Sequence record: MN840485.1
Direction: 5' to 3' (one strand)
Length of the DNA: 45,917 nucleotides
Source of the DNA: Escherichia phage 2725-N35
Position 1 is the first letter of the stretch. Each line of letters starts with the position of its first letter. Positions 3,269-45,162 of this stretch are shown in pieces. The translations under genes were made by a program, and so were the position numbers. The notes beneath the pieces are model-generated. The model ran no database searches. It was not told where the DNA came from and saw only the letters and a list, made by a program, of their open reading frames with translations.

Positions 3269-4195
3269 ATGAGTCACAATGATAAGAACGAAGTGATAGC
3301 CAAGATGAAAGGGATGTGGAGTGAGTTCTACTCATCGCATCTTGGATGGACAAAGGAGAATCTCAGCAAGAAACATGGTCCGTGCCCTTACTGCTTTGGC
3401 AAGGATAGGTTTCGCTTCACTGATGAGTTAGGTCAAGAAAAGGGAAATGGCGCAGCAATATGCAACCAGTGTGGAAATGATTCTGGTGTTGGTTGGGTAA
3501 TGAAGTGTTCTGGAATGAGTTATAGTGAAACAATAGATACGCTTGGTGATTGGCTGAATCTCGTTCCAGTAGAGGTTATATCAAAAGCAAACAAAAGAGC
3601 TTCAAGAACATCACCATACAAAATGGGCGCTCAGATTGATCACGAAAGATGCTTAGAGATAATGGAAAGGACGGAAAGAGTAGAATCAACTCCTCTCAGT
3701 ACATACGAGGGTATCTATAGCGAGTTCGGTTTTGATGTTGGCAGGACGAAATCAGGTGAATTAATCCACGCAGTTCCGTGCTTTATGGCTTATAGCGACG
3801 GTATATCAGAAGAAATGTGTAATGTAATGTTTATCAATGAAGAGGGAGATGTTAGTTATGCTGCAAAAGATTATACTCGCCAGTCTATTTCTGTTATTGG
3901 TTCCCTTAAGGATGATGAGTACGCTTATCTGGTCGATAATCTCATTGACGGCTATCATGTTCACATTGCTACTGGCAACCGCTGCGTGCTTGTTTGCCAC
4001 TCCAGTTACAACATGGAAATGGTTGCTTACGCGCTTAGAAACTACAAGTTACGCATCGCTTGTACTCGCAGCGATTTTGATTTACTCGCCGTTGCTGACG
4101 ATCGCAATCTTGATGTTGTAATGCCAAATAATGATAACCACTTCAAATCAGGAATAAGAAAGCGAATATACAAGGCGAGCGAATTACTAGACTAA
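3269..4195 (+). CDS. DNA primase (zinc-finger type), putative
   Basis: 'CPYCFGKDRF...CNQCGN' zinc-binding motif; sits next to the helicase; start moved to the ATG preceded by GGAGG (track ORF begins at GTG 3242). Confidence 0.55.
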   Translation: MSHNDKNEVIAKMKGMWSEFYSSHLGWTKENLSKKHGPCPYCFGKDRFRFTDELGQEKGNGAAICNQCGNDSGVGWVMKCSGMSYSETIDTLGDWLNLVPVEVISKANKRASRTSPYKMGAQIDHERCLEIMERTERVESTPLSTYEGIYSEFGFDVGRTKSGELIHAVPCFMAYSDGISEEMCNVMFINEEGDVSYAAKDYTRQSISVIGSLKDDEYAYLVDNLIDGYHVHIATGNRCVLVCHSSYNMEMVAYALRNYKLRIACTRSDFDLLAVADDRNLDVVMPNNDNHFKSGIRKRIYKASELLD

Positions 4196-31999: not shown

Positions 32000-32077
32000 T
32001 GGCGCTCCGCACTGGATTCGAACCAGTAACCTACGACTTAGAAGGTCGTTGCTTCTGTCCTGTTGAGCTAGCAGAGC
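32000..32077 (-). tRNA. tRNA-Arg(UCU): tRNA-Arg (anticodon UCU) with encoded CCA
   Basis: Minus-strand GCTCTGC...ACGAC-CTTCTAA-GTCGT...ACTGG-TTCGAAT-CCAGT-GCGGAGC-G-CCA: 7-bp acceptor, 5-bp anticodon stem with UCU, canonical T-arm. D-arm is irregular. Confidence 0.75.
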
Positions 32078-36027: not shown

Positions 36028-36039
36028 GTTGATACCTCG

Positions 36040-36110
36040 TTTGTTTTACTTCGTTTCAGTGACTGCTATATTGCCATCTATTTACGTGTCGGTCAATGTA
36101 TATTTTCGTC
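36040..36110 (-). promoter_or_regulatory. Promoter for the 36027-leftward operon (TTGACC -35-like, TATAGC -10-like)
   Basis: Minus reading: ATACATTGACCgacacgtaaatagatggcaaTATAGCagtcactGAAACGAAG; resembles P-box downstream half. Confidence 0.4.
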
Positions 36111-36305
36111 TATTTTATCATGGATACGCTTTTTGCCTCCAGAGGCCCCTCCATTGCTGGTTGTAAATGTGCCGTATCCGATGTGTACAGATTTTTGAAG
36201 CCATTCCCTATATATGTGCCTTTTATTCCTACAATGCCATCCATTTCTGACAGGTGTCAGAATATCTGCGCGGAACATATCAATAATCTCACCAATTACC
36301 GGTAT

Positions 36306-36372
36306 ACACAGTATACATATATATAATAATAATAATAATAATAAAGTAAAAGGTTGATATATATAGATATTA
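36306..36372. repeat. AT-rich element with (TAA)n microsatellite, copy 2
   Basis: acacagtatacatatatataataataataataataaagtaaaaggttgatatatatagatatt; matches copy 1 at ~9712..9775. Confidence 0.8.
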
Positions 36373-36479
36373 TATTGTATATCGTGTGTATATATCGCGT
36401 AAAAACGTAGGTTAGTGGTCACTAACTTTTGTGACGACACTGAGTATACGGAGGATACGCGTATATCCGTGAGGCTCCC

Positions 36480-36660
36480 ATAGATTGGTAAAAATCAACT
36501 TGTATGGTAGTCAATCCATCTTTCATTCACTCACTCACCACTTCATTTCACTTTTCGCAACAATCAAAAACATCATTGCATCTGAAGCAATATTGCTATA
36601 TGCGCAATAATCATGTGAATCATTGCAATATCTGCAACAATCCATAAATCTGACGAATGG
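36480..36660. repeat. Cluster of short direct/inverted repeats (iteron-like) in divergent region B
   Basis: Repeated GCAACAATC, CATTGCA(A)T, palindrome GCAATATTGC, and tcattcac/tcatttcac direct repeats. Confidence 0.5.
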
Positions 36661-36715
36661 CACTTTTTGCTAAAGACATGCGGGGATGGCGAGGATATAG
36701 TTAACTCATCAAAAC
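36660..36715 (+). promoter_or_regulatory. P-box promoter for the rightward small-gene operon
   Basis: AATGGCACTTTTTGCTAAAG, 23 nt, TATAGTTAACTCATCAAAACGAGG. Confidence 0.6.
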
Positions 36716-36727
36716 GAGGGGATAGAA

Positions 36728-36955
36728 ATGAAAGTAAAGGTTATTGATCTTGATTTCTGTGGTGATATTTATGATGACGAGTATGAGTACTATGGCATCA
36801 ATAAAGGCGGTGTGTATGAAGTGGTAACTACTTATCCTGACCTTGAGGCAATTGTAGTGGTTAACAAGTATTGCCGTAATGTTATGCTCTACAATAATGA
36901 GGTTGAGATCTATGAAGAAAAAATAAAGATGAATTACGTAATGAGTGCGCACTGA
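36728..36955 (+). CDS. Small protein, paralog family member 1
   Basis: MKVKVIDLDF...YYGINKGGVYEV; shares MKIK..FD...YYG(I/V).(N/D)G.VY(E/D)V pattern with two downstream ORFs. Confidence 0.55.
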   Translation: MKVKVIDLDFCGDIYDDEYEYYGINKGGVYEVVTTYPDLEAIVVVNKYCRNVMLYNNEVEIYEEKIKMNYVMSAH

Positions 36956-37101
36956 TTGGGCTTAACGAAGATTACACTGACCTTGTGTTGCGCGGAAAGT
37001 TGGACATAGACTTAGCTAAGCAATTCCAGTCAGAAGATGAATTCATGTGCTGCGATGGACTTGGCTGCGTCGAATGCTTACCATTTATTTGAGGATTGAG
37101 A

Positions 37102-37275
37102 TATGAAAATTAAGATTGTTAAGTTTGATACGATTTACACAACAGATTATTACGGCATTGACATTGGCAAAGTTTATGATGTGTTCATGGATTGCATGGA
37201 TGGAAGGGTTGTAATAATTGACGGTACATCTAAGCCGCTTGTTATTCATCCTGGTGAGTTTGAGGTGGTAGAATG
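37102..37275 (+). CDS. Small protein, paralog family member 2 (~58 aa)
   Basis: MKIKIVKFDTIYTTDYYGIDIGKVYDVF...; SD GAGG; coordinates approximate. Confidence 0.45.
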
Positions 37276-37512
37276 AAAATTCGCTGCAATAACGTTATTA
37301 CAAGCACCGACAAGAAAGTATTAACACCATTCGTAAAAGGCTCTGTATACGACGCTGAGCCGCTAATCATTAACGGCAAGACAATCCCGAACGAGTGGTT
37401 GATTAATGGCGCTGAGCGACCTCACAAGCACGATTCTGGGTGGATTGCCATTTCTGGCTGGAAGGTAGGAATGTTTATTCCTGGGATTGCAACTTTTGAT
37501 GAGGTGAAGTGA
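37273..37512 (+). CDS. Hypothetical small protein
   Basis: 79 aa, overlaps neighbours by 4 nt. Confidence 0.5.
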   Translation: MKIRCNNVITSTDKKVLTPFVKGSVYDAEPLIINGKTIPNEWLINGAERPHKHDSGWIAISGWKVGMFIPGIATFDEVK

Positions 37513-37700
37513 TGAAAATTAAATTAATCAGATTTGATTCAAATCACGCAGAAGACGAGAAAGAATTCTACGGAGTGGAGAATGGAGGGGTTTACGAAGT
37601 AATGCGACAGTATGAGTCTGGCGGGGTTAGCGTTAAGACGCCTTCCGGAAAGGAGCTCCCTTTGTTTACGTTCGAGTTTGAATACATTATGGAGGCCTGA
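37509..37700 (+). CDS. Small protein, paralog family member 3
   Basis: MMKIKLIRFDSNHAEDEKEFYGVENGGVYEV... Confidence 0.55.
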   Translation: MMKIKLIRFDSNHAEDEKEFYGVENGGVYEVMRQYESGGVSVKTPSGKELPLFTFEFEYIMEA

Positions 37701-37704
37701 GTAA

Positions 37705-37866
37705 TGCTATTACCATCTGAGATAAATTATTTCGATCTTGAGGTCGTAAGTGCCTATAGCGGAAAGGGCTGGCCTTGTGGAGATTGGTTCCGAGAGGACT
37801 TGCTAGAGAGTCACGAGATTATGCTTAAGGCGATAGAAAAAGCACGAAATAGCACGAATTGCTAAA
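37705..37866 (+). CDS. Hypothetical small protein (~53 aa)
   Basis: ORF MLLPSEINYFDLEV...; stop codon is the TAA of the next P-box (TTGCTAA); coordinates approximate. Confidence 0.35.
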
Positions 37867-37905
37867 TCCATACGTGGCTTTTCCTGTATATTAACCTCAT
37901 CGAAA
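37850..37905 (+). promoter_or_regulatory. P-box promoter
   Basis: AAATAGCACGAATTGCTAAAT, 22 nt, TATATTAACCTCATCGAAACGGGAG. Confidence 0.6.
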
Positions 37906-37918
37906 CGGGAGATGTAAA

Positions 37919-38098
37919 ATGAAAGTTTACTTACTTAATGCTTATACTGACTATGACGGTTTTGAAATTTGTGGTGTTTTTGATACAGAGGAGCTAGCTG
38001 AATTACAAAAGAATATACTAATAGGCATCGATATAGAACGTGGTTATGGTCCTGATTATTATCTCATTGAAGAATTTGACGTTAAGGTAGCGATTTAA
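37919..38098 (+). CDS. Hypothetical small protein (59 aa)
   Basis: ORF MKVYLLNAYTDYDGFEICG...; SD GGGAG; TAATG overlap with the next gene. Confidence 0.45.
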   Translation: MKVYLLNAYTDYDGFEICGVFDTEELAELQKNILIGIDIERGYGPDYYLIEEFDVKVAI

Positions 38099-38262
38099 TG
38101 TTCGACAATTTTTATGACGCAATGGAAGAGGCAGTATGCCGCGCGTCACTTGATGGAAAGATTTACGGTTTAGTCCAGAAGGTTGATAGGATTGTTGTGC
38201 GAATCGTGCGCAAATCAGTACCAAACAAATTCATGTGGACAACGAAGAGATTAACAAAATGA
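38098..38262 (+). CDS. Hypothetical small protein (54 aa)
   Basis: ORF MFDNFYDAMEEAVCRA...; ATGA overlap with the next gene. Confidence 0.4.
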   Translation: MFDNFYDAMEEAVCRASLDGKIYGLVQKVDRIVVRIVRKSVPNKFMWTTKRLTK

Positions 38263-38648
38263 CTAGTACACCTACTAAAAACTTCATTAGCAAAGAAAAC
38301 GTATTATACAAGGCTCGCGTTAAAAAGGTTCACCAATGGGTTAATGGTGTCCCTGAGGAGGTTGAGTTTGAGCAAATTAAGAAGAATGGCAAATGGATTA
38401 ACCTGGAAGAACGTGGAAAGTATATCAAGACCAAAACTATTTACTGCACAAAGGTTAACCAAAAGTCAGAACTTAAAAAATACTTTAAAGAAGGGAAACG
38501 CTATCAGGTGGCACTTCATGCTGGTCTTGGTCAGTCTGCCGGTTATATTTACGATGAAGATGGTAATGCCTGGCAGCTTTACCGCAGCGAGGACGTTGGT
38601 TTTTACACTCTTTGCCAGACTTACTTATTTGAAGCTCAATACATGTAA
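38259..38648 (+). CDS. Hypothetical protein
   Basis: Track ORF 38235..38648 trimmed to the ATG coupled to the upstream stop. Confidence 0.45.
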   Translation: MTSTPTKNFISKENVLYKARVKKVHQWVNGVPEEVEFEQIKKNGKWINLEERGKYIKTKTIYCTKVNQKSELKKYFKEGKRYQVALHAGLGQSAGYIYDEDGNAWQLYRSEDVGFYTLCQTYLFEAQYM

Positions 38649-38700
38649 ATAGCACAAATTGATAATGCTTTATAAGAGGTCGTTGATATAATGGCCTCTC
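38645..38700 (+). promoter_or_regulatory. P-box promoter (variant upstream box) with perfect TATAAT
   Basis: AAATAGCACAAATTGATAATG, 22 nt, TATAAT. Confidence 0.55.
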
Positions 38701-41944: not shown

Positions 41945-42120
41945 CTAGTCTGCGATAATAAATTCAACCAGCGAACCATCAATCGGCGCTAAAATCCACG
42001 TCATATCGTCACCGTAAATCTTGTAATATCCATCCCCTTGATACTCTGCATTGTACGGCTGGTTAACTGTAAATGGCAGCGTTTTGGAGTTGTTTTTGGT
42101 GCAATAAATCATTTTAGTCA
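41945..42120 (-). CDS. Hypothetical small protein (~55-58 aa) upstream of the holin
   Basis: ORF MTKMIYCTKNN... following the P-box promoter; coordinates approximate. Confidence 0.3.
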
Positions 42121-42154
42121 TTTTGTGTTTCCTTGTTTAGTTCATCTCGTTTCT

Positions 42155-44044: not shown

Positions 44045-44115
44045 CTCTTAATCCTATGTGTTGTTGATGTGCTTAATATAATCCATACGTGGATTTGAGT
44101 TTTAACAAAAAGTGC
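44045..44115 (-). promoter_or_regulatory. P-box promoter (AAAAG-type)
   Basis: GAATAGCACTTTTTGTTAAAAC, 22 nt, TATATTAAGCACATCAACAACAC. Confidence 0.55.
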
Positions 44116-44309
44116 TATTCAACTAAGAAGCTAACTTCTTTTCCATTCGAATCTCTACACCCGTAATACCCGTCACCTTGATAACTAACGAACCAATAGC
44201 ATCCATTATCGCTCAATACTGTTATTGCGCCATCTGAATTAAAGATAATTTCGTAATCTTCAAGTAGAGTAAAGAAACCATTTGCTTTTACACAAGTTGC
44301 ATTAATCAT
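44115..44309 (-). CDS. Hypothetical small protein
   Basis: 64 aa ORF. Confidence 0.45.
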   Translation of the reverse strand: MINATCVKANGFFTLLEDYEIIFNSDGAITVLSDNGCYWFVSYQGDGYYGCRDSNGKEVSFLVE

Positions 44310-44506
44310 CTCACAATCTCCACATCTAATTTTGAAACACTAACAACAATACCCGCATCGTTTTTAACGATGTATCTATCTGAGTCTGCGGAAATTTCAA
44401 GAACAAAATAGCTATTCCCGCGCTTTAGAAGGTACTCATCAATATCCATCCGTGGGGTGTTGTTTCTTGGCTTAAACGTAACAACGAACGGTCTATTATT
44501 AATCAT
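44306..44506 (-). CDS. Hypothetical small protein
   Basis: Start trimmed to the ATG overlapping the upstream stop. Confidence 0.45.
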   Translation of the reverse strand: MINNRPFVVTFKPRNNTPRMDIDEYLLKRGNSYFVLEISADSDRYIVKNDAGIVVSVSKLDVEIVR

Positions 44507-44724
44507 AAGAAATCCTCCGGGCAATCTTTCTTCATTTCTTCGATATCAGCAACCATACGGTCGCGCCACGTTTCGATATCAGTGTTCAGGTAATCTTCTT
44601 CAAAGCTATAGTCCAATGACTCAGCAAGATCGTATGAGTTTGGTTGATATCCTGCTTTATTTAACTCCTGCATTGCCATTAATTTAAATACTTCCCATTG
44701 ATTATCAAATGTAAAAATTGCCAT
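44503..44724 (-). CDS. Hypothetical acidic small protein
   Basis: 73 aa ORF. Confidence 0.45.
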   Translation of the reverse strand: MAIFTFDNQWEVFKLMAMQELNKAGYQPNSYDLAESLDYSFEEDYLNTDIETWRDRMVADIEEMKKDCPEDFL

Positions 44725-44882
44725 TATTCCGATACCTCCAATCCATCAACCAGCTTAATTGGAACAACAACCTCACACCCACCATCAATTACGAAAACAA
44801 ACTTATCAATGTATTGTGAGAATGTATTGAAGAAGAACGTTGAATCCTCCCCAGTTTTCCAGTTTACAATTGCCTCTCTCAT
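44724..44882 (-). CDS. Hypothetical small protein (52 aa)
   Basis: ORF MREAIVNWKTGED...; ATGA-coupled to the upstream gene. Confidence 0.3.
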   Translation of the reverse strand: MREAIVNWKTGEDSTFFFNTFSQYIDKFVFVIDGGCEVVVPIKLVDGLEVSE

Positions 44883-45079
44883 TCTGATACCTCATCAAAT
44901 TTTTCGCCAAATTCGTTTTTAACAGTTTCTAAATCATCTTTGTAGCTAGGGCTAACTTCGAAAGAGTAATCTCCATCCATTACATCAATGAGGATGTAAC
45001 CATCTTCTGTGATGACCAACTCATATTCGTAACCAGTTTTGCGTGATTCGTAGAATTTTCCAGTGTAGATAGTAGCCAT
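44879..45079 (-). CDS. Hypothetical small protein
   Basis: Start set at ATG (MATIYTGKFY...) 30 nt downstream of the P-box -10; track ORF extends to 45127. Confidence 0.45.
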   Translation of the reverse strand: MATIYTGKFYESRKTGYEYELVITEDGYILIDVMDGDYSFEVSPSYKDDLETVKNEFGEKFDEVSE

Positions 45080-45116
45080 TTTATTTCTCTCTTTGTGTTT
45101 CGTTTCGATGGAGTAA

Positions 45117-45162
45117 CTATACCCCATCTTTTAAAATCGCCTTTAGCAATTCGTGCTATTTT
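45117..45162 (-). promoter_or_regulatory. P-box promoter (archetype; duplicated at ~182..228)
   Basis: AAAATAGCACGAATTGCTAAAGG, 22 nt, TATAGTTACTCCATCGAAACGAAAC; VRR-NUC stop TAG lies inside the box. Confidence 0.6.

Follow-up and report, generated by a model that had tools for sequence, protein, structure and literature searches.

Three small paralogous proteins of Escherichia phage 2725-N35, predicted to form SH3-like barrels, are encoded by optional cassettes in a conserved operon

Undiscovered host-takeover and anti-defence functions reside mainly in small early or accessory proteins of phages, and little work has been done on the T1-like group. One related described system is Gp54 of phage Bas11, a dispensable protein of 66 residues and a direct activator of the CapRelSJ46 defence (Zhang et al., Nature 2024; PDB 9AXB; PMC11578894). 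It has been suggested that Gp54 inhibits another defence, and spontaneous escape deletions removing gene 54 together with its neighbours were viable (PMC11578894). A second small barrel, the standalone SH3 protein DUF7244, lies next to the lysis cassette of Drexlerviridae and a lysis role has been proposed for it (2026 paper, PMC13164509). The family examined here is held in the PHROG database as PHROG 14327, where it is annotated as 'unknown function' and where its subtypes, slot behaviour and fold are not recorded. Three of its members, which we call paralogues A, B and C, are encoded on the + strand between positions 36728 and 37700 of a 45,917-nucleotide stretch of Escherichia phage 2725-N35 (record MN840485.1), and this whole stretch is referred to as the window. 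An earlier note on this DNA had described the three genes as a tandem array at the start of a rightward early operon, related through a common N-terminal pattern, and had suggested host-takeover or anti-defence factors that diversify under selection.

Paralogue A (36728-36955, 75 residues) is preceded by the Shine-Dalgarno sequence GAGGGG and is followed by paralogue B (37103-37276, 57 residues) and paralogue C (37512-37700, 62 residues), each of the three having a good Shine-Dalgarno sequence. The open reading frames were found essentially where the earlier note had placed them, B being one base off (37103-37276, not ~37102-37275). An alternative start for C exists at GTG 37509, which would give 63 residues; ATG 37512 is more likely to be the true start because a GAGGTG Shine-Dalgarno sequence lies 7 nucleotides upstream of it. 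Paralogue C is 100% identical to A0A6B9SP38, a database entry for the same phage. The three proteins were found to be related over nearly their full length, with pairwise identities of 30-35% and BLASTP E-values of 9e-10 (A/C), 4e-6 (A/B) and 9e-11 (B/C). Smith-Waterman scores of the pairs ranged from 71 to 89 against shuffle means of 22-26, and none of 5000 shuffles matched an observed score, a result which was unchanged when the first 6 residues were deleted. All three proteins also matched the phrog_14327 profile (63 positions) end to end: A with an E-value of 6.9e-17 (positions 1-62), B with 2.1e-6 (positions 1-62) and C with 6.8e-9 (positions 1-60). The earlier note had recognised that a similarity no better than chance for such short sequences would undo its proposal; the similarity observed is far above chance, and the three genes' descent by duplication and divergence from an ancestor of ~60 residues is supported by the BLASTP, shuffle and profile results alike. 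The N-terminal pattern did point to a genuine kinship, which extends along the whole proteins, but the MKxK start is not itself a mark of the family, since D, F and phrog_9053, neighbours without kinship to it, begin with MK(I/V/K) too. Likewise, three copies are indeed present in the array, but they are not contiguous, being interleaved with a phrog_9053 remnant and with gene D.

Around these genes, the window resembles T1-like coliphages (Drexlerviridae, Braunvirinae) at 87-90% DNA identity. The matched relatives include JeanPiccard (Bas02), JulesPiccard (Bas03), the BEK phages and the vB_EcoS series, and no single record covers more than 69% of the span 36300-38700. The top DNA match in the phage collection was MG065688.1, labelled 'Campylobacter phage A110b' with C. 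jejuni as host; this is a 44-kb T1-like genome collinear with coliphages, and the host label therefore looks doubtful.

Occupancy of the locus was compared across 38 related loci, comprising 9 from annotated phage or metagenome records, 17 more from encoding contigs and IMG/VR and 12 from metagenomes. The sets of 17 and 12 were anchored on backbone gene D and are thus free of bias towards carriers of the family. No family copy was found in 19 loci, one copy in 15 and two copies in 4 (A with B' or A with B); some of the loci end at contig ends, so that the zero-copy counts are upper bounds. Three copies were found only in the window. The locus runs in the order promoter, slot 1, phrog_9053, slot 2, D, slot 3, E and, further on, phrog_2684 and a DUF3987 helicase. 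Slot 1, before phrog_9053, was occupied by A or A' only; slot 2, from phrog_9053 to D, by B, B' or a type represented by P0053; and slot 3, from D to E, by C. Any one of A, B and C can be the lone copy in a locus, Bas02 carrying B only and Bas03 carrying C only.

The backbone around these slots is largely conserved, and D, phrog_2684 and the helicase were present wherever the locus extended that far. Among the closer relatives, which carry 0, 1, 2 or 3 family copies, identity of the DUF3987 helicase is 97-98%; in the Braunvirinae relatives phrog_9053, D and E reach 89-98%, and E is lower in Rogunavirinae (64% in AHS24). Orthologues of A are 86-92% identical, those of B 91% (BEK2/3), 79% (A110b) and 75% (JeanPiccard), and those of C 79% (JulesPiccard) and 76% (IME542). 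The search through related phages that the earlier note had recommended thus revealed that each copy has a slot of its own and that its occurrence varies. A fixed site, presence/absence polymorphism among close relatives and conserved flanks together identify A, B and C as accessory cassettes; unlike classical morons, they have no promoter or terminator of their own and are in-operon cassettes.

The start codon is the exact first border of each cassette, and the ribosome-binding context ahead of it is the one used by the next backbone gene where the cassette is absent. The microhomology GAGG-N7-8-ATGAA(A/G) is found at both cassette ends. The C-terminal E-(F/V)-E of the proteins is encoded by GAG-xTT-GAG-G, which is at the same time the Shine-Dalgarno sequence of the downstream gene, and this E-x-E motif is probably under a dual constraint, as part of the protein and as a ribosome site. 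In such an arrangement, the cassette's own end would supply the Shine-Dalgarno sequence of the next gene, so that gain or loss of a cassette would leave translation of the operon intact.

A recent duplication does not agree with these comparisons: the copies are ~33-35% identical to each other, whereas their own orthologues in other phages are 75-92% identical. No DNA repeats were found between the copies save the 21-nucleotide ribosome-site/ATG junction motif, and synonymous sites are scrambled. A recent in situ duplication is ruled out by this lack of repeats, and the duplications must be old. Judging from the sequences, duplication was probably not local, and the three-copy state most likely arose by recombination among phages with different slot contents. 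Two mosaics were also observed. In P0025, the N-terminal half is A-like and the C-terminal half is of the B type, and the B gene of JeanPiccard (3454-3627 of locus L001) and a B' gene (1180-1368 of locus L005) are alike over their first 24 nucleotides and divergent thereafter. Such mosaicism indicates that recombination may take place inside the family genes as well as at cassette borders.

Selection on the three genes was estimated by the method of Nei and Gojobori, as the ratio of non-synonymous to synonymous substitution rates (dN/dS) against orthologues, the comparisons being pairwise, with few pairs, over 57-65 codons. The ratio was 0.40 for A and 0.12-0.21 for both B and C; for the backbone genes it was 0.06-0.18 (D), 0.01-0.09 (E) and 0.01-0.02 (helicase). 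A, B and C are under purifying selection, which marks them as functional genes, and they evolve faster than their neighbours, the selection on them being 2-10 times looser than that on backbone genes. The earlier suggestion that the proteins diversify under selection was therefore not borne out, ratios of 0.12-0.40 being those of purifying selection.

Structure prediction assigned the family a common fold. An AlphaFold2 model of C, built on a 32-sequence alignment, reached a predicted local distance difference test score (pLDDT) of 91.5 and a predicted template modelling score (pTM) of 0.75, and contains a strand (residues 2-5), a helix (14-20) and four further strands (27-33, 39-42, 48-51 and 56-59). 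The independently predicted BFVD models of a 57-residue B-type protein (2725-N35) and of the AHS24 A' protein superpose with template modelling (TM) scores of 0.79-0.88, from which we conclude that the subtypes have one fold, and the BFVD model of the same B-type protein superposes on the C model with TM scores of 0.82-0.88. The models describe a five-stranded, partly open SH3-like small beta-barrel which can be superposed on SH3, KOW or Tudor domains, SH3-like here denoting a structural class and not a homologous family. In this predicted architecture, strand 1 is followed by a short helix, which replaces the RT loop, and by four strands. Residues conserved across the subtypes are M1, K2, K4, the YG after the helix, G-x-VY-x-V in strand 2 and E-x-E in strand 5. 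These conserved columns are core or turn positions; the loops vary in length and sequence between subtypes. The proteins are acidic, with a mean net charge of -6.7 and a mean isoelectric point of 4.6 over 77 family members and isoelectric points of 4.2-4.7 for A, B and C. The family is predicted to be cytoplasmic, and its sequences show no hydrophobic N-terminus of the kind seen in signal peptides or membrane segments, an observation made without a predictor.

The helix in place of the RT loop sets the family apart from the PRC-barrel, SH3, KOW, Tudor and PetP small barrels. Compared with SH3 domains, which have a pocket for proline-rich ligands, and with KOW domains, no functional motif was identified in the family, although none was specifically tested for. 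Against the Pfam PRC-barrel family (PF05239), B scored 19.6 bits (E 9.4e-4), short of the threshold of 21.2, and A and C gave no match; weak matches were obtained for 7 of 32 family members, the best at an E-value of 1.3e-4. Nor do the proteins belong to the eukaryote-type SH3 domains: no SH3 family of Pfam was matched by A, B or C at E<=1, identity of the family to SH3 structures is 6-20%, and ALYDY and WW are absent from the alignment.

Gene 54 of Bas11 (MZ501085.1) is part of a syntenic operon, located between a divergent intergenic region of ~690 bp and a DUF3987 helicase gene, and the synteny is confirmed by the presence of a phrog_2684 homologue. Gp54 and A/B/C are alike in being small, acidic (Gp54 mildly so), dispensable, SH3-related barrels encoded in this operon. 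They differ in architecture, Gp54 being a six-stranded barrel with a strand 1-strand 2 loop and the A/B/C family having five strands and a helix. Assignment of A, B and C to the Gp54 family (phrog_7421) was rejected, as hhalign returned a probability of 0.2% and only the operon position is common to both.

The A/B/C family is phage-restricted and anciently diverged, with members of ~57-65 residues. A word-seeded search of 5.8 billion proteins with a three-sequence profile retrieved 37 clusters, nearly all on contigs of ~45 kb; an exhaustive hidden Markov model search of 1.84 billion representatives returned only 25 sequences at E<=1e-3, and a broader profile 68 clusters. The subtypes recognised are A, A' (from Rogunavirus, 53% identical to A), B, B' (~37% identical to B), C and the P0053 type, and the remote members P0047-P0053 match PHROG 14327 as well. 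Pfam holds no family above threshold for A, B or C, NCBIfam and PADLOC gave no matches, and a search of PDB sequences with the family profile produced only noise (E>=0.95). No known defence or anti-defence family was matched in PADLOC, NCBIfam or PDB sequences, and no dedicated anti-defence library was searched. A literature search on the locus tags, the PHROG identifier, DUF6501 and tandem SH3-like early proteins found nothing specific.

Beyond the Drexlerviridae, tandem arrays recur among remote single-domain members, carried by contigs with kinship to Pseudomonas syringae phages of ~98 kb; three paralogues are adjacent in L011 and L012 and two in L013. In L011 (3049-3541) and L013 (3236-3648) the paralogues are directly adjacent, with overlapping stop and start codons. 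Other relatives (P0045, P0049, P0050, P0054, P0058 and P0059) carry 2-5 fused domain repeats in one polypeptide, and some of these end in a C-terminal coiled coil. Their genes were found among small accessory genes or beside those for MazG, nucleoside deoxyribosyltransferase, deoxynucleoside monophosphate (dNMP) kinase, Thy1 and DNA polymerase, and never in structural modules. The family profile retrieves the multi-repeat proteins P0045, P0050 and P0054 at E-values of 4e-7 to 8e-4. These three match many uncharacterised PHROGs, including phrog_4927, phrog_15694 and phrog_10169, as well as DUF6501, for which P0054 passes the Pfam cut-off; A, B and C themselves do not match DUF6501, and these repeat families are uncharacterised too. 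Such profile matches point to a wider superfamily of phage mini-barrel modules, which would occur as single genes, tandem genes or fused repeats, and multiplicity of the module is a recurrent theme.

Upstream of A, a promoter-like region (36656-36701, + strand) comprises ATGGCACTTTTTGCTAAA at 36657-36674, AAGACA, a 17-nucleotide spacer and a TATAGT -10 box at 36696-36701, and was also matched by a sigma-70 scan. ATGGCACTTTTTGCTAAA fits the motif ATAGCACnnnTTGnTAAA, of which the window holds 21 sites against 0.5 expected, oriented with the genes and including those at 208, 4242, 21151, 29024, 34002, 36657, 37849, 38649 and 45142. A repeat of 21 nucleotides has been reported ahead of genes in TLS, T1, Rtp and Rogue1 (PMC11447400), and this motif corresponds to it. 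The repeat element and the TATAGT box are kept across five phages and the spacer varies, and it is this conservation that suggests a phage promoter or UP-like element ahead of the box. The next elements on the + strand are located at 37849-37866, within the end of E and before a DUF7336 gene, and at 38649, before the helicase. As one element lies upstream of A and the next within E, A-(phrog_9053)-B-D-C-E can be read as one unit, and the earlier placement of A as the first gene of a rightward unit agrees with the conserved element and -10 box ahead of it. Early expression is plausible from the position next to replication genes, and a literature search found no time-course data for T1-like phages.

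The promoter-like region lies within a divergent intergenic region of 700 bp (36028-36727). This region contains an (AAT)6 tract, TA-rich repeats at ~36320-36400 and an inverted repeat with a 13-bp stem at 36616-36644, and Bas11 has an intergenic region of similar size at the same position.

We are near-certain of the structural and evolutionary description given above. As to function, we propose with about even confidence that A, B and C are non-enzymatic accessory proteins which bind, and thereby modulate, host factors or, less likely, phage factors. One scaffold would be deployed as three optional cassettes, each in its fixed slot of a conserved backbone, and the conserved core combined with variable loops could give each paralogue a different binding specificity. 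Expressed from the first unit beside the replication genes, the proteins would serve as stoichiometric binding modules. They would inhibit or otherwise modulate a protein of the host, for takeover or counter-defence, or possibly one of the phage's own. In favour of binding, A, B and C are too small for catalysis and have no catalytic signature, and their acidity argues for the binding of basic protein surfaces and against direct nucleic-acid binding. The hypothesis of a host-takeover or anti-defence role draws circumstantial support, by analogy, from the dispensable Gp54 in the syntenic Bas11 operon.

Several points weigh against this proposal. No experiment or annotated homologue assigns a function, searches of Pfam, NCBIfam, PADLOC and PDB sequences being negative, and the early timing of expression is putative. 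The parallel with Bas11 is positional only, as no sequence relation between Gp54 and the family could be detected. The family is absent from half of the relatives; it is thus dispensable, and its role could be subtle or host-specific. The dN/dS ratios below 1 give no sign of an arms race, though they are averages over only 57-65 codons, and conservation of E-x-E may partly reflect the embedded ribosome-binding site and not protein function.

A more specific form of the proposal, which we hold only tentatively, is that the three slots make up a counter-defence island, each mini-barrel acting as a decoy or inhibitor with a host target of its own, an immune sensor or another protein, and possibly itself being sensed in the manner of Gp54. 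Were this so, the slot-by-slot turnover in Drexlerviridae would be the trace of an arms race between phage and host immunity, and the family and its fused-repeat relatives would represent an unrecognised, widely reused 'binder scaffold' of phage-host conflict. If host binding holds more generally, a new compact binder family of ~60 residues would be linked to the Gp54/CapRel interaction through a syntenic operon; if it does not, a well-defined uncharacterised family with a confident fold remains. The locus offers a natural experiment, with one scaffold in three versions and isolates carrying 0-3 copies on a nearly identical backbone. Its paralogy, slots and operon parallel with Gp54 make it a good experimental target, and nothing mechanistically surprising has emerged from it so far.

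The fused-repeat relatives raise the alternative that A, B and C form one multivalent or hetero-oligomeric assembly, such as a partner-clustering scaffold, as the split-gene equivalent of those proteins. Single polypeptides with 2-5 repeats of the homologous domain do exist, some of them ending in a coiled coil, and tandem arrays recur independently in the Pseudomonas-phage-like contigs. In Drexlerviridae, however, a single copy is the commonest occupied state (15 of the 38 loci), and since A, B or C alone can be the sole copy, no paralogue needs another. An obligate partnership of the three is for these reasons unlikely.

We give somewhat less credence to a role in the phage's own replication or nucleotide metabolism, for instance in modulating the DUF3987 helicase. 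The operon leads into the helicase gene, and the nucleotide-metabolism and DNA polymerase genes found beside the fused-repeat relatives fit such a role. Against it, the helicase is equally conserved whatever the copy number (0-3) and does not co-vary with the family, and core replication accessory factors do not typically show such dispensability and slot variation. Small barrels of the KOW, Sm, Tudor or PRC-like kind could also bind nucleic acids, acting as regulators of how RNAs of the phage or the host are transcribed or translated, which the acidity of the family renders quite improbable.

A cell-wall-binding or lysis accessory function, as proposed for DUF7244, has a precedent in the same phage family (PMC13164509), and the window itself encodes such a standalone SH3-fold protein of ~58 residues (41945-42121, - strand; Pfam E 1.3e-29), between an exonuclease and a holin gene. 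A, B and C gave no match to PF23896 and an hhalign probability of 0.1% against this DUF7244 protein, from which they are separated by locus and transcription unit; no export-like N-terminal hydrophobic stretch is visible (no predictor was run), and the family never adjoins lysis genes, so that this function is very improbable. That the similarity reflects chance or composition, or that the open reading frames are not genes, might be argued from their shortness and from the MK N-terminus of unrelated neighbours, but we regard it as refuted by the E-values of 4e-6 to 9e-11, the 0/5000 shuffles even without the N-terminus, the single PHROG for all three, the purifying selection, the conserved orthologues and the confident fold.

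Among the interleaved genes, the phrog_9053 remnant (36985-37092, + strand, 35 residues) separates A from B and is unrelated to the family. It matches positions 26-59 of the 59-position profile (E 1e-20) and carries a CCx4Cx2C motif at its C-terminus. In relatives, the full-length orthologues of 59 residues start 14 nucleotides before the stop codon of A and overlap it. The difference is due to one extra A in a run of six (36917-36922, + strand), seen at column 220 of a DNA alignment with four relatives, L003, L005 and AHS24 among them. This extra base lengthens paralogue A by 10 residues to 75, its orthologues having 65 residues and ending in EIYEEK; without it, A would end at ~36925. It also shifts the phrog_9053 start (ATG 36912) out of frame, leaving the 35-residue remnant. 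The extra base may have arisen by mutation or may be a sequencing error in the homopolymer. Either is more likely than a programmed -1 frameshift joining A to phrog_9053, because the six-A run has no canonical slippery heptamer. In IME542, phrog_9053 is likewise open for only 35 residues.

Gene D (phrog_4448; 37273-37512, + strand, 79 residues) lies between B and C and is predicted to encode a six-stranded barrel. It was considered as a fourth paralogue on account of its MKI start and a shared G-S-VYD motif, and was rejected with shuffle p values of 0.02-0.3 and an hhalign probability of at most 6%. Homology of D to Gp54 was also rejected, neither direct comparison nor a PDB profile search revealing a sequence relation; the structural match between the two is moderate and was obtained on a model of D with a pLDDT of 71. 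Gene E (phrog_4548; 37704-37865, + strand, 53 residues) is the last gene of the unit and has the next promoter element at its 3' end.

Elsewhere in the window, an Rfam search found only a transfer RNA (tRNA) gene (32003-32077, - strand, 56 bits), located among the small genes of the leftward arm. Also in this arm (44115-45127, - strand) are small open reading frames of 64, 72, 52 and 82 residues whose products look beta-rich. One reading frame there (44306-44524) matches the family profile weakly (E 0.005), which suggests that further SH3-like mini-proteins may be encoded elsewhere in the genome.

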